14,507 nucleotides of DNA from a virus (taxonomy: Duplodnaviria > Heunggongvirae > Uroviricota > Caudoviricetes): IMG/VR virus record IMGVR_UViG_2740892236_000007. One strand, written 5' to 3'. Shown one piece after another: positions 1 through 14,507 of the stretch. The translations under genes and the position numbers were made by a program. Numbering within the stretch: the first letter of the stretch is position 1; each line of letters begins with the position of its first letter. The notes beneath the pieces are model-generated. The model made no database searches. It saw only the letters and a list, made by a program, of their open reading frames with translations, and had not been told where the DNA came from.

Positions 1-71
1 ACCAAAGCATGACATCTCTGTTTCGCACCGAAGGTGACACTTCTGCTTTGCGTTGACAGGAGAAGCAGGCT

Positions 72-227
72 ATGAAGCAGCAAAAGGCGATGTTAATCGC
101 CCTGATCGTCATCTGTTTAACCGTCATAGTGACGGCACTGGTAACGAGGAAAGACCTCTGCGAGGTACGAATCCGAACCGGCCAGACGGAGGTCGCTGTC
201 TTCACAGCTTACGAACCTGAGGAGTAA
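72..227 (+). CDS. hokD: Hok-family type I toxin, 51 aa (HokD/RelF-like)
   Basis: ATG 72, TAA 225-227; translation MKQQKAMLIALIVICLTVIVTALVTRKDLCEVRIRTGQTEVAVFTAYEPEE, a hydrophobic helix plus charged tail. Below the ORF-track size cutoff, found by manual reading. A short upstream frame (MTSLFRTEGDTSALR, stop at 55-57) resembles a mok-type leader. Confidence 0.85.
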   Translation: MKQQKAMLIALIVICLTVIVTALVTRKDLCEVRIRTGQTEVAVFTAYEPEE

Positions 228-295
228 GAGACCCGGCGGGGGAGAAATCCCTCGCCACCTCTGATGTGGCAGGCATCCTCAACGCACCCGCACTT

Positions 296-320
296 AACCC
301 GCTTCGGCGGGTTTTTGTTT
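296..320 (+). terminator. Rho-independent terminator after hok-like gene
   Basis: Stem AACCCGC (296-302) / GCGGGTT (307-313) with TTCG loop, followed by a T-run. Confidence 0.6.
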
Positions 321-335
321 TTATTTTCAACGCGT

Positions 336-365
336 TTGAAGTTCTGGACGGTGCCGGAATAGAAT
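336..365 (+). promoter_or_regulatory. Candidate sigma70 promoter upstream of rem
   Basis: TTGAAG (336-341), 18-nt spacer, TAGAAT (360-365); pattern match only. Confidence 0.35.
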
Positions 366-443
366 CAAAAATACTTAAGTAGCGCGCAGGGATAAGAGGG
401 ATGGTCCCTTAAAGGGGAGAGCTAATTATCCGGAAGGATTCTG

Positions 444-695
444 ATGATGAACATCGAAGAACTGCGTAAAATTTTTTGTGAAGATGGCCTCTATGCTGTG
501 TGCGTTGAAAATGGAAATCTTGTTAGTCATTACCGCATTATGTGTTTGCGAAAGAATGGGGCTGCGTTAATTAATTTTGTGGATGCTCGGGTCACGGACG
601 GATTTATCTTGCGCGAAGGTGAGTTTGTCACTTCATTACAGGCATTGAAAGAGATCGGAATAAAAGCTGGCTTTTCTGCTTTTTCAGGAGAATAA
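444..695 (+). CDS. rem: Rem-like small prophage protein, 83 aa
   Basis: ORF with SD GGAAGGA 6 nt upstream; translation MMNIEELRKIFCEDGLYAVC... matches recalled Rem; synteny hok-rem-ydfU as in Qin-type prophages. Confidence 0.8.
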   Translation: MMNIEELRKIFCEDGLYAVCVENGNLVSHYRIMCLRKNGAALINFVDARVTDGFILREGEFVTSLQALKEIGIKAGFSAFSGE

Positions 696-761
696 ACTCA
701 TCTACAATCTTGCGCGGGGCTGAACTCCCGCTGAGTAACACCGTGCCACCGGAGAAAACCG

Positions 762-1040
762 ATGGCACGCAACGCAAAATATTACAATTCTGATAATTCG
801 CCCGTTCTTGCCTGCACGCACGGGCGGTATTCTCACGCATTCAAGTCTGAATGGTTCCAGCACCCTCCATGCACTGCAGAACAGGCCGAATGGCTGATTC
901 ATTCTTACCGCAGGCGCGGGTTCGAGGTTAAGAAAGCTCTCAGTCTCGACTATCGGCACTGGATAATCTCTGTCAGGCTGCCTTATTCCGAACGCCCACC
1001 ACGTGCGTCCCGCACTTTCCAGCAACGGATCTGGAGGTAA
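762..1040 (+). CDS. Hypothetical protein, 92 aa, translationally coupled to the downstream DUF968 gene
   Basis: SD GGAGAAAA before ATG 762; stop TAA 1038-1040 lies between SD GGAGG (1033-1037) and the GTG 1042 start of the next gene; family not recognised. Confidence 0.45.
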   Translation: MARNAKYYNSDNSPVLACTHGRYSHAFKSEWFQHPPCTAEQAEWLIHSYRRRGFEVKKALSLDYRHWIISVRLPYSERPPRASRTFQQRIWR

Positions 1041-1041
1041 C

Positions 1042-2091
1042 GTGCGGGTATTACTTAGACCTGTTCTGGTGCCTGAGCTTGGGCTGGTGGTCCTTAAGCC
1101 GGGCCGTGAATCCATACAGATATTTCATAATCCTCGAGTGCTGGTGGAACCGGAACCAAAAAGCATGCGTAATCTGCCATCCGGAGTCGTTCCTGCCGTT
1201 CGCCAGCCGCTGGCGGAAGACAAAACATTGCTGCCGTTTTTTAGTAACGAACGGGTGATTCGTGCTGCTGGCGGCGTTGGCGCATTGTCCGACTGGCTAT
1301 TACGTCATGTTACATCCTGCCAGTGGCCTAATGGCGATTACCATCACACTGAAACAGTCATTCACCGTTATGGTACCGGCGCAATGGTGTTGTGCTGGCA
1401 CTGCGACAACCAACTGCGTGACCAGACATCGGAATCACTGGAGCTGCTTGCTCAACAAAATCTGACAGCATGGGTGATTGACGTCATCCGTCACGCAATA
1501 AGCGGTACGCAGGAGCGGGAATTATCTTTGGCTGAATTATCCTGGTGGGCGGTCTGCAATCAGGTGGTGGATGCACTACCTGAGGCTGTATCGCGTCGTT
1601 CGCTGGGATTACCAGCGGAAAAAATCTGCTCGGTGTACCGCGAAAGCGACATCGTACCGGGAGAGCAGACCGCCACCAGCATATTGAAACAACGCACAAA
1701 AAATCTTGCACCGTTGCCTTACGCCCACCAGCAACAAAAATCACCACAGGAAAAGACGGTGGTAAGCATCACCGTTGATCCAGAGTCTCCGGAATCTTTC
1801 ATGAAGCTGCCTAAACGTCGCCGCTGGGTTAAGGAGAAATACACACGTTGGGTTAAGACACAGCCGTGTGCTTGCTGCGGTATGCCAGCCGACGATCCGC
1901 ATCATCTGATTGGTCACGGGCAGGGCGGAATGGGAACAAAAGCACATGATCTCTTTGTGTTGCCTTTGTGCAGAAAGCATCACAACGAGCTGCATACGGA
2001 TACAGTGGCATTTGAAGATAAGTATGGCTCCCAACTGGAGCTGATATTTCGTTTTATCGATCGCGAGCTGGCAATTGGCGTACTGGCGTAA
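1042..2091 (+). CDS. ydfU: DUF968-family protein with HNH-like Cys/His motif (YdfU-like), 349 aa from GTG
   Basis: Long ORF (track 1003..2091); preferred start GTG 1042 with SD GGAGG; C-terminal CACCG...HH...C..HHNELH motif; position between rem and Q. Confidence 0.8.
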   Translation: MRVLLRPVLVPELGLVVLKPGRESIQIFHNPRVLVEPEPKSMRNLPSGVVPAVRQPLAEDKTLLPFFSNERVIRAAGGVGALSDWLLRHVTSCQWPNGDYHHTETVIHRYGTGAMVLCWHCDNQLRDQTSESLELLAQQNLTAWVIDVIRHAISGTQERELSLAELSWWAVCNQVVDALPEAVSRRSLGLPAEKICSVYRESDIVPGEQTATSILKQRTKNLAPLPYAHQQQKSPQEKTVVSITVDPESPESFMKLPKRRRWVKEKYTRWVKTQPCACCGMPADDPHHLIGHGQGGMGTKAHDLFVLPLCRKHHNELHTDTVAFEDKYGSQLELIFRFIDRELAIGVLA

Positions 2092-2104
2092 GTGGAGAAC
2101 GAGC

Positions 2105-2857
2105 ATGAACCTTGAAGCCTTACCAAAATATTACTCCCCAAAATCTCCAAAATTGAGCGATGACGCTCCAGCGACAGGCACCGGTTGTTTAACAATTACG
2201 GATGTAATGGCAGCGCAGGGGATGGTGCAGTCGAAAGCACCACTTGGGTTGGCCTTATTTCTGGCAAAAGTTGGTGTTCAGGACCCTCAGTTTGCGATTG
2301 AAGGCCTGCTAAATTACGCGATGGCACTGGATAACCCGACATTGAACAAATTGAGTGAAGAAATCCGGTTACAGATTATTCCTTACCTCGTGAGTTTTGC
2401 CTTTGCTGATTACTCCAGGTCTGCGGCAAGTAAGGCTCGCTGTGAGCATTGTTCAGGTACGGGATTTTATAATGTATTGCGCGAAGTGGTGAAACACTAC
2501 AGACGCGGGGAATCTGTAATCAAGGAAGAATGGGTGAAGGAACTATGTCAGCATTGCCATGGTAAGGGCGAAGCCAGCACAGCGTGCAGAGGGTGTAAGG
2601 GTAAAGGGATTGTTCTGGATGAAAAAAGAACCCGGTTTCATGGCGTACCGGTATATAAGATTTGTGGGCGTTGTAATGGAAACCGGTTTAGTCGTTTACC
2701 GACCACGCTGGCACGACGTCATGTCCAGAAGCTGGTACCAGACCTGACCGATTATCAGTGGTATAAGGGGTATGCGGACGTCATTGGTAAACTGGTAACA
2801 AAGTGCTGGCAGGAAGAAGCATACGCGGAAGCGCAATTGAGGAAGGTGACGAGATAA
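2105..2857 (+). CDS. quuQ: Late-gene antitermination protein Q, 250 aa
   Basis: Repeated CxxC..G zinc-finger-like motifs (CEHCSGTG, CQHCHGKG, CRGCKGKG, CGRCNGNR); SD GGAGA before ATG 2105 (track start 2075 is an in-frame upstream ATG overlapping ydfU); followed by promoter/terminator module. Confidence 0.8.
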   Translation: MNLEALPKYYSPKSPKLSDDAPATGTGCLTITDVMAAQGMVQSKAPLGLALFLAKVGVQDPQFAIEGLLNYAMALDNPTLNKLSEEIRLQIIPYLVSFAFADYSRSAASKARCEHCSGTGFYNVLREVVKHYRRGESVIKEEWVKELCQHCHGKGEASTACRGCKGKGIVLDEKRTRFHGVPVYKICGRCNGNRFSRLPTTLARRHVQKLVPDLTDYQWYKGYADVIGKLVTKCWQEEAYAEAQLRKVTR

Positions 2858-2888
2858 ATGATTTTTGCTGAAGATGGCGACATGATGT

Positions 2889-2917
2889 TTGCATTTTTCA
2901 AAAAATATGGATAAAAT
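2889..2917 (+). promoter_or_regulatory. Candidate late promoter (PR'-like) downstream of Q
   Basis: TTGCAT (2889-2894), 17-nt spacer, TAAAAT (2912-2917), about 30 bp after the Q stop; predicted start near 2924. Confidence 0.45.
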
Positions 2918-2962
2918 TTTTTCAACGATGGGCTTTGTATACCCGACGTTAAGAAAAAGTAG

Positions 2963-2990
2963 AAAACCCGCTGATGAGCGGGTTTTGTGC
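2963..2990. terminator. Bidirectional intrinsic terminator (tR'-like on +, cspF terminator on -)
   Basis: AAAACCCGC / GCGGGTTTT stem with TGATGA loop; A-run upstream and T-run downstream so it can act on both strands. Confidence 0.6.
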
Positions 2991-3278
2991 TTTAAATGGG
3001 GCAATGGTAATGTTGAATCTCATCCCGGGACTCATGTCTGTTAACTTATTATTTAGCTGGTGACTTGGTTATTTGCCTGATGTTTAAAATGTTTTCTTCC
3101 AGTACAATGTCCCTAAACACAATGAGTCTGCTTATTATATTATTAGCAGAGCTATTACGGCCAAAGTACAGCATAAGCTTTTAAAGCCAATCAACCAGTC
3201 ATCAAGACAGACGGGGTTATTCATAAAAACTCTCCATGTGTGATCCGATGGGGCCTGAAATTAAAGCTTTAATATAGC

Positions 3279-3491
3279 TCATGAAAGGTAAACATTGGCA
3301 GCTGAAGGGCCACGCAGACCATTTATCCGGCAAAATTCCACGCGTAATCCGGTGGTAATTTCTTCTGCATCGCGGAGATTGAGCGCTGAAACATGAAGCT
3401 GGACATCGATACGACCATCGGATGGGGTGATAAGACCCTTGCCGCTTTTGCCGTCAAAGGTTTTGACAATTCCTGTCATTTTACGGGACAA
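3279..3491 (-). CDS. cspF: CspA-family cold-shock domain protein, 70 aa (CspF/CspH type)
   Basis: Translation [27 protein letters not shown]...[10 protein letters not shown]; divergent from cspB. Confidence 0.85.
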
Positions 3492-3595
3492 AAAAATTCC
3501 TTAATACTGATAACTTGGCGCACTATACACACGTTCCTGAAGAAAGCTATAGTTTTTTGATGGGGTTGAAGATGGCTGGATGTCTAAAATAAACA

Positions 3596-3624
3596 TTGCT
3601 TCATATGTTCAACTATGCGTTAAT
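3596..3624 (+). promoter_or_regulatory. Candidate cspB promoter (cspA-like)
   Basis: TTGCTT (3596-3601), 17-nt spacer, GTTAAT (3619-3624); predicts a ~160-nt 5' UTR; GCCGAAAGGC upstream-box-like element at ~3761-3770. Confidence 0.45.
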
Positions 3625-3791
3625 GATTGCGTCGGTTTGAAGAACAGACGATATACGAAGTAGTTTACTAAAGCAGTTCTCATTTCAGGTGTTATTCACT
3701 TATTCCTTCTTTGAGTCTCTCCAATTAAGTACGAAGTCGTTTCTGTTATGCAAACCATTTATGCCGAAAGGCTCAAGTTAAGGAATGTAGA

Positions 3792-4007
3792 ATGTCAAAT
3801 AAAATGACTGGTTTAGTAAAATGGTTTAACGCTGATAAAGGTTTCGGCTTTATTTCTCCTGTTGATGGTAGTAAAGATGTGTTTGTGCATTTTTCTGCGA
3901 TTCAGAATGATAATTATCGAACCTTATTTGAAGGTCAAAAGGTTACCTTCTCTATAGAGAGTGGTGCTAAAGGTCCTGCAGCAGCAAATGTCATCATTAC
4001 TGATTAA
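3792..4007 (+). CDS. cspB: Cold-shock protein CspB, 71 aa
   Basis: Translation [71 protein letters not shown] with RNP motifs. Confidence 0.95.
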
Positions 4008-4288
4008 AATTCATCGCTCGTCTGTATACGATAACGAAGAAGGCTGATGCCTGAGTAGAGATACGGACAGAGTAGTGAATATTGGATCTCTTTAATAAAA
4101 AGTAAGGAGGTCCAATACATGAAACAATGGCTAGCATATTTGGCAAAATCTTAATCAGGAAAAGTATGCTAACCATTGTGGTGAAGTGCAGGTTTGCTGC
4201 ATGAATAGTTTTACAGCAGAAGCTAACTGCTGGCATGGCAAAACAAAGTGCGTAAGTGGATGACTCCCACAAAAAGCACCACAATCTC

Positions 4289-4311
4289 AAACCCGCTCAG
4301 GCGGGTTTTTT
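4289..4311 (+). terminator. Rho-independent terminator ending the cspB transcription unit
   Basis: AAACCCGC / GCGGGTTT stem, TCAG loop, T-run. Confidence 0.6.
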
Positions 4312-4370
4312 ATTATCTGCTTTAAATATATTATTAAAATATAAAAAATACTTGTTACTAATAAAATCAA

Positions 4371-4541
4371 TCAGGCTACAGCTTTAAGATTTGTCTGGAA
4401 TACTTTGTTGCAATGAGGGCAGATCAAAAGGGCACCTTTTTGTACTCTTGAAAAACTGTGTTCTGACTCTTGGGTGCAGTTTGGGCAGGAACATTTAACG
4501 AGATAATTACGGCGTGATTTTGAGTTTTTACGTTCTGACAT
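4371..4541 (-). CDS. Small zinc-ribbon-like protein, 56 aa (two CxxC pairs)
   Basis: Preferred internal ATG 4541 with AGGAAAAG SD; MSERKNSKSRRNYLVKCSCPNCTQESEHSFSRVQKGALLICPHCNKVFQTNLKAVA; track ORF 4371..4592. Confidence 0.5.
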   Translation of the reverse strand: MSERKNSKSRRNYLVKCSCPNCTQESEHSFSRVQKGALLICPHCNKVFQTNLKAVA

Positions 4542-4760
4542 AGGCTTTTCCTGTATAAATGGCCGTATACAGTACACTAAATATGAAAACATTTCTCGTA
4601 TTATTATTTTATATATGACTTTCTTTCAAAATAATTACCCACATTTTTAATGTGTATGTTTTTTTAGCGCCGTTGAGAACAACGTGTGCTGTCAAAACTA
4701 CCCCGTAGACTCCGATCTTTTCAAACATATTGCACCATCCGTGTACATCGGGGTGAGGAT

Positions 4761-4976
4761 ATGAAATCAATGGATAAGTTAACAACAGGTGTTGCCTATG
4801 GCACATCGGCGGGTAATGCTGGTTTCTGGGCATTGCAGTTACTCGATAAAGTAACTCCGTCACAGTGGGCTGCAATCGGTGTGCTGGGTAGCCTGGTTTT
4901 TGGCCTGCTGACGTATCTGACAAATCTTTATTTCAAGATTAAAGAAGACAGGCGTAAGGCTGCGAGAGGAGAGTAA
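4761..4976 (+). CDS. essQ: Class II holin (S21-type pinholin), 71 aa, dual-start motif
   Basis: SD GAGGAT before ATG 4761; MKSMDK dual start; two hydrophobic segments and charged C-tail; closely resembles recalled phage 21 S. Track start 4686 is an upstream in-frame ATG. Confidence 0.85.
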
Positions 4977-4980
4977 TCCA

Positions 4981-5288
4981 ATGACTCAAGACTATGAACT
5001 GGTTGTGAAAGGAGTCCGTAATTTTGAGAATAAAGTTACGGTAACTGTAGCCTTACAGGACAAAGAACGCTTTGACGGTGAAATTTTTGACCTGGATGTC
5101 GCCATGGACCGTGTTGAAGGAGCTGCGCTGGAGTTTTATGAGGCAGCAGCCAGAAGGAGCGTCCGGCAAGTCTTCCTGGAAGTAGCAGAAAAATTGTCAG
5201 AAAAAGTTGAGTCTTATCTGCAGCATCAGTACTCCTTTAAGATTGAAAATCCTGCCAATAAGCACGAGCGTCCTCATCATAAATATCT

Positions 5289-5292
<4 letters not shown>
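4981..5292 (+). CDS. ydfR: DUF1327-like protein inserted between holin and endolysin, 103 aa
   Basis: ORF with SD; stop overlaps endolysin start (ATGA at 5289-5292); synteny with Qin ydfR. Confidence 0.8.
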
Positions 5293-6316
<1,024 letters not shown>

Positions 6317-6498
6317 GGTAATATTAAATCGGAACATTTACATCGCGGAATGTAAAATTTAAATAAAAAGGACTCTTCCATGAGCCAAAATTCCTGAAAT
6401 CTTAAGGGTAAGATAAAAGGTCTTAATCAGAATGACACGTTTTATTAATAAATAAAGCCATTCTTTCATTGCTGTGTTTTTCTTTACAAAAGTAATCC

Positions 6499-6527
6499 TT
6501 GCTATGGGTGGTTAATCATGCGTTAAT
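6499..6527 (+). promoter_or_regulatory. Candidate cspI promoter (same architecture as cspB)
   Basis: TTGCTA (6499-6504), 17-nt spacer, GTTAAT (6522-6527); predicts a ~145-nt 5' UTR. Confidence 0.4.
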
Positions 6528-6678
6528 GGTGTTCTGGTTTGTTACAAATTTATCTGAAGCAGTCATTGTTATAATTTTATTATTTGTACCTCTTGAGATT
6601 TCCTTGTTGGTTTTTCTCTCTGATATTTTTTTTCGGACCATTCTGCCCAAGGGCTAATTTCTTCAAAAGGTAATAATT

Positions 6679-6891
6679 ATGTCTAACAAAATGACTGGTT
6701 TAGTGAAATGGTTTAACCCTGAAAAAGGTTTTGGTTTCATCACGCCGAAAGATGGCAGCAAAGATGTGTTTGTCCATTTCTCAGCAATTCAGAGCAACGA
6801 TTTCAAAACATTAACTGAGAATCAGGAAGTTGAATTTGGTATTGAGAACGGACCTAAAGGTCCTGCCGCTGTTCATGTAGTGGCGCTTTGA
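6679..6891 (+). CDS. cspI: Cold-shock protein CspI, 70 aa
   Basis: Translation [70 protein letters not shown]. Confidence 0.95.
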
Positions 6892-7095
6892 GGTAGACAA
6901 TATTACAAACCATATTCACTTTAGATGCCCGTGTTGTCATGGTTCCCAGTATAGAACATCATCTTTTGATGTTTCTGACATGAATCCTTTCGGGGCAAAA
7001 TGTATCTTTTGTAAATCAATGATGATTACATTTGATAATATTTCACAATACTTAAATGCCAGCCGTCTGTCGTTGGATTTAAAAAAGTGAAAATG

Positions 7096-7118
7096 AAGGC
7101 TCCTTCGGGAGCTTTTTT
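7096..7118 (+). terminator. Rho-independent terminator downstream of cspI
   Basis: AAGGCTCC / GGAGCTTT stem with TTCG tetraloop and T-run. Confidence 0.6.
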
Positions 7119-7237
7119 GCTTGGTGTCTATTCGATGGATACTCACATACTACGGTAACATCATGAAAAAAATCATAGTTTTTTTTAACTCTGAACCAGC
7201 AGTGGTAGTGCCAGCGATGACTGGAGTTAACACCATC

Positions 7238-7393
7238 ATGCGTGAATATCCAAATGGCGAAAAAACACACCTTACTGTAATGGCCGCAGGGTTTCCATCT
7301 CTGACCGGAGATCATAAAGTCATTTATGTAGCCGCGGATCGACATGTTACTTCAGAAGAAATTCTGGAAGCAGCAATAAGGCTCTTGAGTTGA
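7238..7393 (+). CDS. ynfN: YnfN-like small protein, 51 aa
   Basis: MREYPNGEKTHLTVMAAGFPSLTGDHKVIYVAADRHVTSEEILEAAIRLLS; in-frame upstream ATGs at 7217 and 7163 are alternative starts. Confidence 0.65.
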   Translation: MREYPNGEKTHLTVMAAGFPSLTGDHKVIYVAADRHVTSEEILEAAIRLLS

Positions 7394-7564
7394 TTTGATG
7401 CTATTGCATTGATAATTCAGGAAAATTCTCTTTGTCTGTTTGTGTAAAATTTAGACTATCGTATGTTGATTATTGCGATGTTTCATCTTATCTTTTACAC
7501 GTTTGCACCATATAATCGACTTACTGTGTAACTGGAAAGTCATAACAGACTAAAAGAGGAAATG

Positions 7565-7738
7565 ATGAATATTGAAAACTTAAAAACAAAAGCAGAAGCA
7601 GATATTTCTGAATATATAACAAAAAAAATTATTGAACTTAAGAAAAAGACCGGGAAAGAAGTTACCAGTATTCAGTTTACCGCACGGGAAAAAATGACGG
7701 GTCTTGAAAGCTATGATGTCAAGATTAATTTAATCTGA
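7565..7738 (+). CDS. gnsB: GnsB-like small protein, 57 aa
   Basis: MNIENLKTKAEADISEYITKKIIELKKKTGKEVTSIQFTAREKMTGLESYDVKINLI; found manually (below track cutoff); an extra in-frame ATG sits at 7562. Confidence 0.8.
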   Translation: MNIENLKTKAEADISEYITKKIIELKKKTGKEVTSIQFTAREKMTGLESYDVKINLI

Positions 7739-7764
7739 TGTATTCAATAATAAAATTTATCCAT

Positions 7765-7790
7765 AAACCTCGTTTTTACGGGGTTTTGTT
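7765..7790 (+). terminator. Putative terminator after gnsB
   Basis: AAACCTCG / CGGGGTTT stem (one G-U pair) followed by TTGTT. Confidence 0.45.
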
Positions 7791-7889
7791 ATATTTGAAT
7801 GGTTCCGAATATCTAAATCACAATTGTTGATGGTTTTTATTAAACCAATGCAGTCCGGCTCAGGAGTGAGAGAAGCCGGACGTTATGGT

Positions 7890-8300
7890 TTAGCGTGGTA
7901 AGATCTGTGTAGTTTTCTGGATGCTTTCAGTAAATAGTAATGAATTATCAAAGGTATAGTAATATCTTTTTTGTTCGTGGATATTTGTAACCCACCGAAA
8001 AACTCCTGCTTTAGCAAGGTTTCTTCTGTATTCCTGAAATGTGATCTCTCTGGATTTCAGCTTATTAGAGGTCGTTTCTATAAGATGCCTATCCTTTGAA
8101 AATTTGACAGACACAATGTTTTTTAGGCCCTTTAATAACACTGTATTATCATTTTTTAATACAATATGAACATTCTCTGTGGCTAAATAGTAAATGTAAT
8201 GTGAGACATTGTGACGTTTTAGCTCAGAATAAAACCATTGATAGTTTAAATCGTTTCGAACTTTATCAAATATTTGTTTAAAAATGACTACCTGATCCAT
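7890..8300 (-). CDS. ydfO: DUF1398-family protein (YdfO/YbcV-like), 136 aa
   Basis: Preferred start is the second ATG (8300) preceded by GGAAGG; track ORF 7890..8315. Confidence 0.8.
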
Positions 8301-8357
8301 AGATAAACCTTCCATGTGATATGAGGGGGCGTAGTCTGCACGATTATCTAAATTGCT

Positions 8358-8591
8358 TCAATCTGGTCTGACCTGTTTTCTGAGCAATTCAGTAATGTCA
8401 CTCTTTTCTTTGTTTGCTTCAGAAGAAACTCTTTTTTCTGAGCACAGTCTCCGGCGGCAGGCTTCAATGACCCAGGCTGAGAAATTCCCGGACCCTTTTT
8501 GCTCAAGAGCGATGTTAATTTGTTCAATCATTTGGTTAGGAAAGCGGATGTTGCGGGTTGTTGTTCTGCGGGTTCTGTTCTTCGTTGACAT
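8358..8591 (-). CDS. ynfO: Small basic protein with RHH-like N-terminus, 77 aa (YnfO-like)
   Basis: MSTKNRTRRTTTRNIRFPNQMIEQINIALEQ... resembles Arc/CopG strand-helix; name from recalled Qin synteny only. Confidence 0.6.
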   Translation of the reverse strand: MSTKNRTRRTTTRNIRFPNQMIEQINIALEQKGSGNFSAWVIEACRRRLCSEKRVSSEANKEKSDITELLRKQVRPD

Positions 8592-8720
8592 GAGGTTGCC
8601 CCGTATTCAGTGTCGCTGATTTGTATTGTCTGAAGTTGTTTTTACGTTAAGTTGATGCAGATCAATTAATACGATACCTGCGTCATAATTGATTATTTGA
8701 CGTGGTTTGATGGCCTCCAC

Positions 8721-8976
8721 GCACGTTGTGATATGTAGATGATAATCATTATCACTTTACGGGTCCTTTCCGGTGATCCGACAGGTTACGGGGCGGCGAC
8801 CTCGCGGGTTTTCGCTATTTATGAAAATTTTCCGGTTTAANNNNNNNNNNGTAGATGCACGTTGTGACATGTAGATGATAATTATTATCATTTTGCGGGT
8901 CCTTTCCGGCGATCCGACAGGTTACGGGGCGGCGACCTCGCGGGTTTTCGCTATTTATGAAAATTTTCCGGTTTAA
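8721..8976. repeat. Two diverged direct copies (~120 bp, about 96 percent identical) of the cos-proximal sequence, separated by N10 (8841-8850)
   Basis: Copy 1 8721-8840 and copy 2 8857-8976 both contain ...CCGACAGGTTACG GGGCGGCGACCTCGCGGGTTTTCGCTATTTATGAAAATTTTCCGGTTTAA with 5 mismatches. Confidence 0.85.
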
Positions 8977-9085
8977 GGTGTTTCCGTTCTTCTTCGTCGT
9001 AACTTAATGTTTTTATTTAAAATACCCCCTGAAAAGAAAGGAAACGACAGGTGCTGAAAGCGGGCTTTTTGGCCTTTGTCGTTTC
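8927..9085 (+). other. Lambda-type cos site: cosN (GGGCGGCGACCT, 8927-8938) plus cosB with Nu1-binding-site-like repeats
   Basis: Near-identity to recalled lambda left end; GTTTCCGTTCTTCTTCG, GAAAGGAAACGACAG and TGTCGTTTCCTTTCTC repeats upstream of nu1. A second cosN copy lies at 8791-8802. Confidence 0.8.
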
Positions 9086-9115
9086 CTTTCTCTGTTTTTG
9101 TCCGTGGAATGAACA

Positions 9116-9373
9116 ATGGAAGTCAACAAAAAGCAGCTGGCTGACATTTTCGGTGCGAGTATCCGTACCATTCAGAACTGGCAGGAACAGGGAATGCCCG
9201 TTCTGCGAGGCGGTGGCAAGGGTAATGAGGTGCTTTATGACTCTGCCGCCGTCATAAAATGGTATGCCGAAAGGGATGCTGAAATTGAGAACGAAAAGCT
9301 GCGCCGGGAAGTTGAAGAACTGCGGCAGGCCAGCGAGACAGATCTCCAGCCACCCGCGCTACGGCATGGGTAA
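9116..9373 (+). pseudogene. Terminase small subunit Nu1 homolog, N-terminal ~77 codons only
   Basis: MEVNKKQLADIFGASIRTIQNWQEQGMPVLRGGGKGNEVLYDSAAVIKWYAERDAEIENEKLRREVEELRQAS matches recalled lambda Nu1 DNA-binding domain; homology ends near 9353, frame closes at 9373. Confidence 0.8.
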
Positions 9374-10603
9374 ACGTCTTGGTGCGGCAGATGTGGATAA
9401 ATGGGCGCTGTATGTCATCGGCCAGTGTTGCGACCAGTCGGTGCCGGACGGTTTTGGCGGCACGGAGCCGCGCATCACCTGTAATGCCTGGCTGACCACA
9501 CAGCGTAAGGCGTGGGATGTTCTCAGTGATTTCTGCTCGGCGATGCGCTGTATGCCGGTATGGAACGGGCAGACGCTGACGTTCGTGCAGGACCGACCAT
9601 CAGATAAGGTGTGGACCTATAACCGCAGTAATGTGGTGATGCCGGATGATGGCGCGCCGTTCCGCTACAGCTTCAGCGCCCTGAAGGACCGCCATAATGC
9701 CGTTGAGGTGAACTGGATTGACCCGGATAACGGCTGGGAGACGGCGACAGAGCTTGTGGAGGACACGCAGGCCATTGCCCGTTACGGTCGTAACGTCACG
9801 AAGATGGATGCCTTTGGCTGTACCAGGCGGGGGCAGGCGCACCGAGCCGGGCTGTGGCTGATTAAAACGGAACTGCTGGAAACGCAGACCGTGGACTTCA
9901 GCGTGGGTGCCGAAGGGCTTCGCCATGTACCAGGTGATGTCATTGAAATCTGTGATGATGACTATGCGGGGATCAGCATCGGCGGGCGCGTGCTGGCGGT
10001 GAACAGCCAGACGCGGACACTGACGCTCGACCGTGAAATCACGCTGCCATCCTCCGGCACCACGCTGATAAGCCTGGTTGACGGGCAGGGTAATCCGGTG
10101 AGCGTGGAGGTCCAGTCCGTCACCGACGGCGTGAAGGTGAAAGTGAGCCGGGTTCCTGACGGCGTTGCCGAGTACAGCGTGTGGGGGCTGAAGCTGCCGA
10201 CGCTGCGTCAGCGCCTGTTCCGCTGTGTGAGTATCCGTGAGAACGATGACGGTACGTATGCCATCACTGCCGTGCAGCATGTACCGGAGAAAGAAGCCAT
10301 CGTGGATAACGGGGCGCACTTTGACGGTGACCAGAGCGGCACGGTGAATGGTGTCACGCCGCCAGCAGTTCAGCACCTGACCGCAGAAGTCACCGCAGAC
10401 AGCGGGGAATACCAGGTGCTGGCGCGCTGGGACACGCCGAAGGTGGTGAAGGGGGTGAGCTTTATGCTTCGCCTGACCGTGGCAGCGGACGACGGCAGTG
10501 AGCGGTTGGTCAGCACGGCCCGGACGACGGAAACCACATATCGCTTCACGCAGCTGGCGCTGGGAAATTACAGGCTGACAGTCCGGGCGGTAAATGCATG
10601 GGG
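9354..10603 (+). pseudogene. Internal fragment of lambda J-like tail tip protein
   Basis: Frame-0 translation (...FRCVSIRENDDGTYAITAVQHVPEKEAIVDNGAHFDG...RAVNAWGQ) matches recalled lambda J; no N- or C-terminus; junctions at ~9353 and ~10604. Confidence 0.8.
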
Positions 10604-10906
10604 ACAGCCGGTGCACATACCCATTCGATGACATTTGTTTCAGGTGGTTCCAGTGGTGCTCCGGGAAGTGGATCACCTGATTATTCTAAATACAGTGTTA
10701 ACACTTCTTCTGCAGGCGCTCATACGCACTCTGTATCGGGTACTGCTGCAAGCGCAGGTGCACACGCATATACTGTCGGTATTGGTGCTCATACGCACTC
10801 CGTTGCGATTGGTTCACATGGACATACCATCACCGTTAACGCTGCTGGTAACGCGGAAAACACCGTCAAAAACATCGCATTTAACTATATTGTGAGGCTT
10901 GCATAA
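10604..10906 (+). pseudogene. Side tail fiber (Stf) C-terminal fragment fused to the J fragment
   Basis: GAHTHS repeats and ...[19 protein letters not shown]-terminus; stop overlaps tfa start (TAATG). Confidence 0.75.
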
Positions 10907-11486
10907 TGGCATTCAGAATGAGTGAACAACCACGGACCATAAAAATTTATAATCTGCTGGCCGGAACTAATGAATTTATTGGTGAAGGTGATGCATATAT
11001 TCCGCCTCATACAGGTCTGCCAGCAAACAGTACCGATATTGCACCGCCAGATATTCCGGCTGGCTTCGTGGCTGTTTTCAACAGTGATGAGTCATCGTGG
11101 CATCTTGTTGAAGACCATCGGGGTAAACAGTTTATGACGTGGCATCAGGGGACGCGTTATTTATTTCTGAACTCGGCTCATTACCGGAAAATGTTACCTG
11201 GTTATCCCCGGAAGGGGAGTTTCAGAAGTGGAACGGCACAGCCTGGGTGAAGGATACGGAAGCAGAAAAACTGTTCCGGATCCGGGAGGTGGAAGAAACA
11301 AAAAACAGCCTGATGCAGGTAGCCAGTGAGCATATAGCGCCGCTTCAGGATGCTGTGGATCTGGAAATCGCAACGGAGGAAGAAACCTTGTTGCTGGAAG
11401 CCTGGAAAAAGTATCGGGTATTGCTGAACCGTGTTGATACGTCAACTGCACAGGATATTGAATGGCCAGTAGCACCTATAGGGTAA
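10906..11486 (+). pseudogene. Tail fiber assembly protein Tfa, disrupted by a 1-nt frameshift near 11128
   Basis: N-terminal part in one frame (10906..11250), C-terminal part [17 protein letters not shown]... in another frame (to 11486). Confidence 0.75.
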
Positions 11487-11570
11487 ATTCGTAATGATTA
11501 CCTAAATACGTTATTCTTTTGTTCAAAAAGTGATTTTGCTATAGATAGGGAGTATGTTCTTGGATTAAGA

Positions 11571-11601
11571 ATAAAAATCGCCATGAAAGAGCTTCATGGC
11601 G
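11571..11601 (-). terminator. Intrinsic-terminator-like hairpin oriented for minus-strand transcripts
   Basis: Perfect 9-bp stem CGCCATGAA / TTCATGGCG with 5-nt loop; on the minus strand it is followed by ATTTTTAT. Confidence 0.4.
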
Positions 11602-12344
11602 AGTACATAAACGTACAAAATGTGATGAAAGTAGAGTGGCGTAAGCCACTATATTAAGATGTGACAATAGCGAAGAAAAGTAAATAACATTTTATGGACG
11701 TTTAATTGTTAATTATAAAAACTAGAGTGCCCGATATTGTTTACCTTGCTTTAAAATAATGTACTCAAACCAAATTTTTGAGCTAAAAGCTCAAATAATA
11801 TAAATGCAATAATAATGTTTAATAAGACAATTAGCTTGCTTTGTATTTTCATTTCGGAATACTGTTAAGTAACTTTGATGACCCTAACAATAGATCGGAA
11901 TTTTCTTAGAGTCAATGGTCACTGTTTTTGCTTGCAAAGCAAATGTTTTGGTGGTTATAAGTTGTCTTAATATAGTCACGCATGCAACTTGTTCCATGCG
12001 GAGATTAAAGATTGGAATATAACGCTAAGATGGAATTAAATTACATTTGCAATAATCAATTTATTATTACTCAATAATTACCGATATTATTATTGTAAAT
12101 TAATCATTAGAGTGCAAAAAGAAATGTAACGGCAAAATAAGAGGACGATAGCTGAGAAAAAAGCGTGCTTTCCCAATCTGGGGCAAATCACGTCTGAATG
12201 ACACCTGAAAACAGGTGGTAGCCTCAAGAAGGCTTGGAATATTCTTCTTTAATGTTATGTAATTCATTGATTTTTCGTGTACGATTTAAAGACATTTATT
12301 CCAAGAAAAATTTTTAACTCTTTGATTTTTCGACTCTGTATCAT

Positions 12345-12406
12345 CGGTCTCGAAAACCGGAGTAGGGGCAACTCTACCGGGGGTTCAAATCCCCCTCTCT
12401 CCGCCA
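12345..12406 (+). tRNA. serU: 3' fragment (~62 nt) of tRNA-Ser(CGA): anticodon arm, long variable arm, T-arm, acceptor 3' strand, CCA; not a complete tRNA
   Basis: CGGTCTCGAAAACCGGAGTAGGGGCAACTCTACCGGGGGTTCAAATCCCCCTCTCTCCGCCA matches the recalled 3' portion of E. coli serU; no 5' half is present upstream. Confidence 0.8.
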
Positions 12407-12990
12407 CTTTATCAATGACTTATCTCCCGACTTCCCGCCTTGCTTTTCCTAAACAGAACAATCGTAGAATATTCTTGAAGGGTTAGATCGTCACTGTTTT
12501 CTGTTCGATACTGTGACATTCAGCACTTGATTCGCTATGGATCTGACAGGAAGGTTTTGAGCGAAAATTTGCAGTTATTCAGTCGTTTTCTTATCGGTCA
12601 CCATTATTCTTTTAGACATTGATCCTACAAAGCTGCCGCAAAGTTGGTGGTGGGAACTGAAGTTGCGTAGAGAAGGGGTCAATACCCGGAGGCAAACATG
12701 GGCTGGCAAAAGTGTAGCGGTATTAGGCGCAGCTATTTAGCCTAGTTATGTTTTATGAAAACTTGATATCATATAAGTGTCTTACTTATTGGCTGTAAAT
12801 AAGTTTTTCCTAAGGAATTGTTTCTTGAGTATCATTTGTAACTGTAACGGAATTTATAATCCTTTGCTTTATTGTTACGGTATTTTTTATCACACCCTAT
12901 TTTTTATATGGTTTTTTATACTGAAGTTTGGCAAAGTGAACTTTATATGCATATACTTCATCCTGGTTTCAGTTAAGTTGGGTGGATGAT

Positions 12991-13734
12991 ATGGCAACTA
13001 CATGTTCAGTTATATTGATTTTGGAGTCCTTTGATGTTTATTTCGGAAAAGAGAGTGTGTTTCTGGAGAGAGGTTCATCTGTACTTGTCGACTCTAGCTC
13101 TAGAGATTTTTTCCTGACATATCCTGAAAGAGTGATAGTGGCGGATTTTGGCGCTGAGTTTATTAGTCGCTATTTGAAAGCTAATAACTTAAGGGATATT
13201 TCTGATTGTAGGGAATATCCATCTTATTTAAAAATAAACTTTGCTGACTTCAGTTTAATTAAAGGATTAATTAGTTGGGCTAATCACTGTGCTGAATACA
13301 TAGAAATTTTTGATGAGTCTATTGCTTTTACATGTCTCTCTGCATTTTCTTCTGAAAAACAATTTGGAGTATTTCTGTTTGAATGTTTGAAAAGCACAGG
13401 GGCTAAAGTTAAAACGATTATTCATACGGATTTATCTGCACCATGGCGTCTTAAGGATATATCATCAAGATTATATCTCAGCGAAAGTTTACTAAAGAGG
13501 AAATTGAAAGAAGAGGGGGTATCATTCAGTAAGATCATACTTGATGAGAGGATGCAAATGGCTGAATATTTACTCAGCACTCGTTGTTATCCTATTAGTA
13601 AAGTAGCTAAGGTCTGTGGTTATGCCAGTGTCTCATACTTTACTTATGTATTTAGACGTTATTTTGGTGTTTCTCCAAGTCAATACTCTCAGAGCAGTTC
13701 AGAAAGTAAAATTCTTACTCACCAGGGAATCTGA
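12991..13734 (+). CDS. AraC/XylS-family transcriptional regulator, AppY/YdeO/GadX-like, 247 aa
   Basis: C-terminal double HTH (WRLKDISSRLYLSESLLKRKLKEEG...CGYASVSYFTYVFRRYFGVSPSQY); N-terminus resembles AppY/YdeO; AT-rich gene; track ORF begins at GTG 12982. Confidence 0.85.
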   Translation: MATTCSVILILESFDVYFGKESVFLERGSSVLVDSSSRDFFLTYPERVIVADFGAEFISRYLKANNLRDISDCREYPSYLKINFADFSLIKGLISWANHCAEYIEIFDESIAFTCLSAFSSEKQFGVFLFECLKSTGAKVKTIIHTDLSAPWRLKDISSRLYLSESLLKRKLKEEGVSFSKIILDERMQMAEYLLSTRCYPISKVAKVCGYASVSYFTYVFRRYFGVSPSQYSQSSSESKILTHQGI

Positions 13735-13740
13735 TCATTG

Positions 13741-14243
13741 TTCTTGCCCCCTTATTTCCAGACAGGGGGTGTATCTTAAGTTAACGTTACCCGCTGACGT
13801 CGATATTCTCGCGGAGAGCGATAACCCAACGCACTGTGCGGATGGTTTTCATTGTAATGTTCGATCGCCACTGCAAGATTATGCAATGCCGTTCTTACAT
13901 TCGGTTTCGGCATGAACGCGATGTAGTCTTCCTTCATCGTTTTCACGAACCTTTCTGCCATTCCATTACTCTGAGGACTGCTGATTGCCGTTGTGCAGGG
14001 CTCCAGATTCAACTCTCTGGCGAACTGCCATGTTTCATGCGCTCTATACGCTGAACCGTTATCTGTCAGCCACTGGATGGACTGTTCCGGTACTTTATCG
14101 CCAAAGCGTTTTTCTATCGCTCCTAACATGACATCCTGCACTGTCGCTTTATCGTAACCTCCCGTGCTTGCGGCCCAGTCTATGGCTTCACGATCGCAAC
14201 AGTCCAGGGCGAACGTAACACGCAGTTTTGAATCGCCACGGGT
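13741..14243 (-). mobile_element. IS3-family (IS2-group-like) remnant: terminal inverted repeat plus transposase OrfB C-terminal half (~155 codons)
   Basis: Minus-strand frame 13776..14243 (...[24 protein letters not shown]...[13 protein letters not shown]...[14 protein letters not shown]) resembles the recalled IS2 InsD C-terminal half; 13741-13765 resembles the recalled IS2 terminal repeat; N-terminal half absent. Confidence 0.75.
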
Positions 14244-14291
14244 TTAACAGACACCTCAGAGTCATTTAAGATGGCTTAAAGAGAGGTGCCC

Positions 14292-14507
14292 ATGAGCGGT
14301 AAGCGTTATCCCGAAGAGTTTAAAACTGAAGCAGTCAAACAGGTTGTTGATCGCGGTTATTCTGTTGCCAGCGTTGCAACACGTCTCGATATCACCACCC
14401 ACAGCCTTTATGCCTGGATAAAGAAGTACGGTCCGGATTACTCCACTTTTTCATCAAGCCAATCCGCCCACCACTGCATCATTTCTCTGCGCTTATCGAG
14501 ATACTGA
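14292..14507 (+). mobile_element. IS3-family OrfA-like N-terminal fragment (HTH), second IS in opposite orientation
   Basis: MSGKRYPEEFKTEAVKQVVDRGYSVASVATRLDITTHSLYAWIKKYGPD fits the IS3-family OrfA N-terminal pattern; downstream part diverges and the window ends at 14507. Confidence 0.6.

Follow-up and report, generated by a model that had tools for sequence, protein, structure and literature searches.

False duplications flanking scaffold gaps have been described as 'duplicated overlapping contigs' (Kelley & Salzberg 2010, PMC2864568). The double cos considered here lies in a window of 14,507 nucleotides, the whole stretch of DNA that was analysed, and it resembles that class in that the neighbouring contig ends align with slight divergence, common sequence lies on the opposite side and merging the ends gives the true sequence. 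On the other hand, the duplicated versions in the published class are the two haplotypes of a diploid, whereas those found here are paralogous prophage copies in a haploid bacterium, and one of the two arms is not an allele of the Qin locus but belongs approximately 0.8-0.9 Mb away. The element itself compares closely with the cos of phage lambda (cosQ-cosN-cosB) as kept in the Escherichia coli prophages Qin and DLP12, since the left copy together with its flank is identical to phage lambda DE3 (EU078592.1) at 161 of 161 positions, and behind the right copy come the cosB repeats and the beginning of nu1; unlike lambda, Qin keeps no more of Nu1 than residues 1-81, and the terminase large subunit (gene A) is absent. 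A further parallel is offered by the chimeric or collapsed de Bruijn repeat paths of E. coli strains with several prophages, in which a path changes from one version to the other only where the two are identical for k nucleotides or more, and a contig stops at the final k-mer with a base that tells the versions apart, the only special point in the present case being that the exact k (67) is readable from the coordinates.

We consider the double cos to be an assembly artefact in the short-read draft scaffold CCVS01000116.1, with a probability of roughly 0.95. What Qin has kept is an ordinary cos of the lambda type, its duplication belongs to a known class of assembly errors, and no new biological feature is involved. 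The relevance of the case is one of quality control only: this scaffold would mislead the delimitation of prophage boundaries, analyses of synteny, the calling of inversions and surveys of cos sites. In this regard, CCVS01000116.1 carries 136 spurious bases at the Qin cos and, very probably, an ungapped chimeric join about 2 kb further on, which falsely places Qin beside ybhB-bio-uvrB. More generally, the coordinates of a duplication on either side of a gap can reveal both the k-mer size of an assembly and the structure of a bubble.

The duplicated unit and its source scaffold

A cos-containing repeat of about 120 bp, with about five mismatches between its copies, had been proposed to surround a run of 10 N, and this was confirmed both by a repeat search of the window and by a scan for N runs. 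The repeat search returned a single direct-repeat family near the finding, namely 8721-8840 and 8857-8976 (120 nt, 96% identical, 136 nt from start to start; all features are given on the plus strand, the gap excepted), with mismatches at 8732/8868, 8747/8883, 8755/8891, 8759/8895 and 8774/8910. The copies are interrupted, and the sole junction between them is the N run at 8841-8850, the only one in the 14,507 bases and a scaffold gap placeholder that is also present in the source scaffold. Just before the right copy, 8851-8856 aligns to 8715-8720 with four differences, and the true duplicated unit is 126 nt long (8715-8840 and 8851-8976). These facing ends of 126 nt differ at nine sites, with Qin-specific sequence to their left and cosB and nu1 to their right, and since these flanks overlap, the true size of the gap at 8841-8850 is negative. 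Two 25-nt cosN cores at the observed spacing were matched once in the window and in none of 200 shuffles.

Through its frameshifted tfa product, the window was traced to scaffold CCVS01000116.1 (54,026 bp, assembly GCA_000752955.1), to which it is identical over 13,602 compared bases, N10 included, and it is therefore a draft scaffold in which the Ns stand for a scaffold gap. Rightward, this scaffold extends into ybhB, bioABFCD and uvrB. A literature search returned no paper for CCVS01 or GCA_000752955.

The Qin prophage and its cos

The left piece of the window (1-8840) matches the Qin prophage of E. coli MARGA_4 at 99.989% identity, with one mismatch in 8840 nt. Its Qin-specific part (1-8454) comprises, under the names used in the MARGA_4 record, hokD, rem, ydfU, the Q antiterminator gene ydfT, cspF, cspB, the lysis genes, cspI, gnsB, ydfO and ynfO, and Pfam matches in the left part include Q, DUF1398 and DUF3950. 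Beyond it and a stretch shared with a second remnant (8455-8714) comes the left copy with the 6 nt before it (8715-8840), which contains cosQ, cosN and the first bases towards cosB; this segment is identical to Qin in an aligned complete genome, lies within the 161-nt DE3 match and is Qin's own, true version of the locus.

The 12-nt 'cos site' annotated in DE3 aligns to two positions of the window, 8791-8802 and 8927-8938, and at both of them the cohesive end (cosN) reads GGGCGGCGACCT. In both copies this lambda-type cohesive end, together with its flanking cosN symmetry, is identical to that of lambda. The cosB region, on the other hand, occurs once (8977-9115), as supported by an inverted repeat and by the alignment to DE3 upstream of nu1. 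The inverted pair inside it (9035-9049 and 9077-9091) is what we take to be the Nu1-binding repeats R2 and R1 of lambda cosB. Directly behind it lies a truncated nu1 (9116-9373; Pfam Phage_Nu1, E = 1.4e-48, profile positions 1-81 of 164), annotated in the Qin record as a terminase small subunit pseudogene. Both cosB and nu1 are found after the right copy only, and the left piece ends 38 nt past the cohesive end, short of cosB; therefore one complete cos is present, and a repaired locus would likewise be expected to hold one. As the nu1 of Qin is truncated and no terminase large subunit accompanies it, this cos would be expected to act only with the terminase of a helper phage, as lambda-qin hybrids would suggest.

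The DLP12-like arm and a de Bruijn bubble

The right copy with the 6 nt before it (8851-8976) is foreign to the Qin locus. At the nine diagnostic sites 8851, 8853, 8854, 8856, 8868, 8883, 8891, 8895 and 8910 it carries the allele of a second lambdoid remnant in nine of nine cases and the Qin allele in none, the reference being the ylcI-nohD spacer of that remnant in three complete genomes; it lies within 8851-9110, a segment that matches CM2010-0578/1 at 100%. The annotated genes of this second remnant, which adjoins ybhB-bioA, are quuD, essD, rrrD, rzpD, bor, ybcV, ybcW, ylcI and nohD, and it is therefore called DLP12-like. Thus, the origin of the copies from different lambdoid prophages, as had been surmised, can be made specific, the left one being Qin and the right one carrying the alleles of the DLP12-like remnant next to ybhB/bio.

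This remnant exists in several deletion forms among strains (compare loci L002 and L003), of which one has a complete nohD and a fragment of the terminase large subunit gene and another a fusion of truncated nohD with a tail gene. Among strains, the haplotype of its cosB region varies as well, at 8979-9076.

Sequence identity between the Qin and DLP12-like loci is complete over 8455-8714 and resumes at 8775, with nine differences concentrated within 8715-8774. The upstream identical stretch, 260 nt long, has zero mismatches against L002, L003 and L006, is shared as a run of k-mers for k = 55 to 127 and provides the upstream closure of a bubble, because a cluster of variants over 60 nt that is flanked by identical sequence on either side forms a closed bubble in a de Bruijn graph. 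The piece ends agree with such a structure to the base. The last base of the left piece, 8840, equals 8774 + 66 and closes the last 67-mer that still holds a Qin-specific base, and the right piece starts at 8851, which is the first variant site (equivalent to 8715). Each arm is 126 nt long, that is, 60 + 66, and k is therefore 67. Other values were rejected: a k of 77 would move the end of the left piece to 8850 and a k of 127 to 8900, and neither would leave the shared stretches of 68 nt discussed below. The original prediction had spoken of two contig ends that each terminate in cos repeats; a scaffold join it is, but the joined pieces are better understood as the two arms of one bubble, since the loci are identical on both sides of the 60-nt cluster.

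Very probably, the duplication arose in a strain with two lambdoid remnants, Qin and a DLP12-like one next to ybhB/bio, for which the assembly graph contained a bubble with a Qin version and a DLP12-like version as its arms, differing at nine positions just upstream of cosN. The scaffolder then set both arms in series, in the order shared stretch, Qin arm, N10, DLP12-like arm, shared stretch, with a minimal gap of 10 N written between the arms. From the coordinates alone we infer an assembler of the Velvet type, k = 67 and why the gap has exactly 10 N. In this respect we assume that Velvet keeps a node minus its leading k-1 bases, so that these are dropped after a gap, that no fewer than 10 N are written when a gap is zero or negative, and that bubbles of more than 100 k-mers are not popped. 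A literature search for the 10-N convention of Velvet or other scaffolders returned nothing usable. A widely used Velvet pipeline chooses k at 66-90% of the read length and comes with a warning of false joins (PMC5320598).

A single cos in other assemblies

In a complete genome, which has one cos, the left copy runs directly into the sequence that the window shows from 8977. Among the best 30 complete genomes the matching region covers 11,333-11,334 nt, as against 11,469 in the window, barring IS and other insertions, and the excess of the window is due to the 136 extra nucleotides. When 8841-8976 are removed, the repaired junction of 1,085 nt is recovered as one uninterrupted piece at 99.9% in 11 of the 12 genomes listed, the sole difference being position 9241, and its coverage reaches 80% or more in 1,923 genomes. 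The nu1'::J' form of Qin is present in 69 complete genomes, and the junction is one piece in every best-matching one listed. Nine further single-cos Qin assemblies, drafts included, were traced through the 92-aa ORF at 10628-10906, and in six of these nine, where both ynfO and nu1 were called, the spacing between the two genes is 389 nt as against 525 nt in the source. That tail-fibre fragment ORF is not specific to a Qin/DLP hybrid, being identical in ordinary Qin loci. Phage records arranged in prophage order likewise contain one copy, with 753 nt of query falling onto 617 nt. Taken as a comparison with other assemblies rather than with the source isolate itself, these data indicate that the real Qin locus has one cos, the left copy, and that removal of the 136 nt at 8841-8976 restores it.

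A pattern of two cosN cores at a spacing of 121-151 nt, which matches across literal Ns, was found in none of 185,579 species-representative genomes, a scan that did not return the source record either, and in none of 2.9 million viral contigs. This result bears on the view that Qin carries a genuine tandem of two heteroallelic cos copies, for instance after unequal recombination with the other prophage, in which case N10 would be an unsequenced junction. If this were so, CCGGTTTAAGGTG (and GGTGTTTCC, right of 8840) would link back to GATGGCGTAGATGCACG in one molecule, and a double cos with copies about 136 nt apart would bear on the choice of cos by terminase and on termination at cos. The window alone excludes nothing that might be hidden behind the Ns, yet all nine differences of the right copy are alleles of a paralogous locus that is present in the same scaffold, both piece ends fall exactly on the bubble boundaries for one k, no such pair occurs in any independent assembly, phage record or public contig examined, and the left copy stops before cosB, so that there is only one complete cos. 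A genuine tandem is therefore regarded as extremely improbable, and the idea of a scaffold join, which the original prediction had favoured over a tandem cos, agrees with the single cos of complete genomes, drafts and phage records.

The mosaic right piece and the join across the gap

Beyond the gap, the right piece (8851-14507) is a mosaic, being of DLP type at 8851-8910, common to both loci at 8911-9240, Qin-specific at 9310-10825 and of DLP type again from 10903 to its end. The possibility that it represents a plain Qin contig was considered and rejected, given that DLP-type sequence makes up its opening 60 nt and the whole of it from 10903. Its Qin-specific middle (9353-10714) consists of the nu1'::J' deletion fusion and a tail-fibre fragment, aligns to none of the three DLP12-like loci examined, L002 and L003 among them, and is perfectly identical to Qin; Pfam matches within it are Phage-tail_3 and Ig_J. 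Pfam also supports the J fragments, Caudo_TAP, AraC and a fragment of rve. The DLP12-like right end (10903-14507) was annotated from matching loci in other genomes and from Pfam and contains a frameshifted tfa, an AT-rich spacer with a tRNA 3' fragment, a gene of the AraC family and IS fragments; over 11300-14507 it is 100% identical to the DLP12-like locus in at least 15 complete genomes, these being the ones listed.

If the DLP12-like locus of the source resembles that of JNQH497 and 23CRST021, two strains that rank among the best matches at both loci (the source haplotype being taken from other strains), then the alleles run DLP at 8851-8910, Qin at 8979-9076, DLP at 9241, Qin at 9310-10825 and DLP from 10903. 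The four allele switches cross identical stretches of 68, 164, 68 and 77 nt, all of them at least 67 nt long, and two of these four stretches vanish for k of 69 or more.

The C at 9241 is the DLP12-like allele of JNQH497 and 23CRST021 and was seen in no Qin locus; placed amid Qin-type stretches, it looks like the product of a popped single-SNP bubble.

One could instead read the right piece as a faithful DLP12-like locus whose nu1'::J' middle had been gene-converted to the Qin type, wrongly joined to Qin at N10. Such a reading would account for a piece that opens with DLP-type sequence, carries the DLP-type C at 9241 and ends in DLP-type flank, and both the natural mosaicism of tfa between the loci, as in the Qin of LD39-1, and the occurrence of several deletion variants of the DLP12-like locus among strains are in its favour. 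It would nevertheless require at least two, and probably four, conversion boundaries within 2 kb; the right piece is found at 80% or more contiguous coverage in none of 5,426 complete genomes, all best matches to 8851-10902 are Qin loci without the DLP-type start, and the join across N10 reproduces the Qin gene order of all assemblies examined. This reading is therefore very unlikely. Qin left part, cos, nu1', J' is the usual order of Qin, and the join across N10 is therefore correct in order and orientation and merely unmerged. The concern that linkage between the left and right parts of the window is unverified can be set aside for the stretch across N10 up to about 10.8 kb, which is adjacent Qin sequence in the complete genomes and drafts that have the nu1'::J' form, and was justified for what lies beyond 10826-10902, where tfa, the tRNA fragment, the AraC gene and the IS are part of the DLP12-like remnant.

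The ungapped switch at 10826-10902

The second irregularity of the scaffold is a switch from Qin-type to DLP12-like sequence that takes place without a gap. It coincides with a 77-nt stretch (10826-10902) that is identical in both loci and forms a shared k-mer run at k of 77 or less, and it is delimited by diagnostic sites on either side, 13 of Qin type before it (10717-10825) and 23 of DLP type after it (10903-11452). The first base of this stretch, 10826, is exactly where an unrelated metagenome contig begins. Neither the window nor the right piece was found at 80% or more contiguous coverage in any of the 5,426 complete genomes, and 10715-11000 had a 100% match in none of them. In JNQH497 and 23CRST021, the two complete genomes in which both loci were located and from which their distance was taken, Qin and the DLP12-like remnant lie approximately 0.8-0.9 Mb apart in opposite orientation.

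With respect to natural exchange in this region, the tfaQ of the E. coli LD39-1 Qin (locus L007, 4391-5256) is a natural mosaic, of DLP type at the equivalents of 10903-11092 and of Qin type from 11106, and recombination of tfa between both remnants therefore occurs in nature.

The existence of such mosaics also lends some support to the idea that the switch reflects a real chromosomal inversion of about 0.8-0.9 Mb, brought about by recombination between the inverted remnants. Given the opposite orientation of the loci in JNQH497 and 23CRST021, a crossover would invert rather than delete, the change from 13 Qin-type to 23 DLP-type sites is that of a single clean crossover, and the scaffold shows no gap at 10826-10902. 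On the other hand, the junction is present in 0 of 5,426 complete genomes and 10715-11000 is without a 100% match, a 77-nt identical stretch is exactly what a graph with k = 67 fails to resolve, an independent metagenome contig is broken at precisely 10826, and the same scaffold contains another repeat-induced error 2 kb away. It also counts against an inversion that it would displace the terminus region, as Qin is close to dif. An inversion is thus unlikely, and a chimeric path through 10826-10902 is, very probably, the much likelier explanation.

Other features of the right part

At about 11124, a deletion of 1 nt reduces an A run from four to three relative to all six reference loci and splits the tail-fibre assembly gene into two ORFs, 10906-11250 and 11139-11486. 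The frameshifted tfa product of 114 aa is also encoded on two unrelated metagenome scaffolds (L009 and L010), and the frameshift is therefore a real allele rather than a sequencing error.

A tRNA 3' fragment ending in CCA is located at about 12343-12405. In the window, neither ARAGORN nor Rfam at gathering thresholds reported a tRNA, and a relaxed scan gave weak tRNA-like matches at 12352-12403. The fragment is presumably the 3' part of serU, the gene for tRNA-Ser(CGA), which would make it the att-site remnant of an integrated element. Rfam matches above the gathering score were the IS009 sRNA at 11248-11446, inside tfa, and, in the Qin part of the window, leaders of the cspA thermoregulator type at 3631-4023, before cspB, and at 6533-6918, before cspI.
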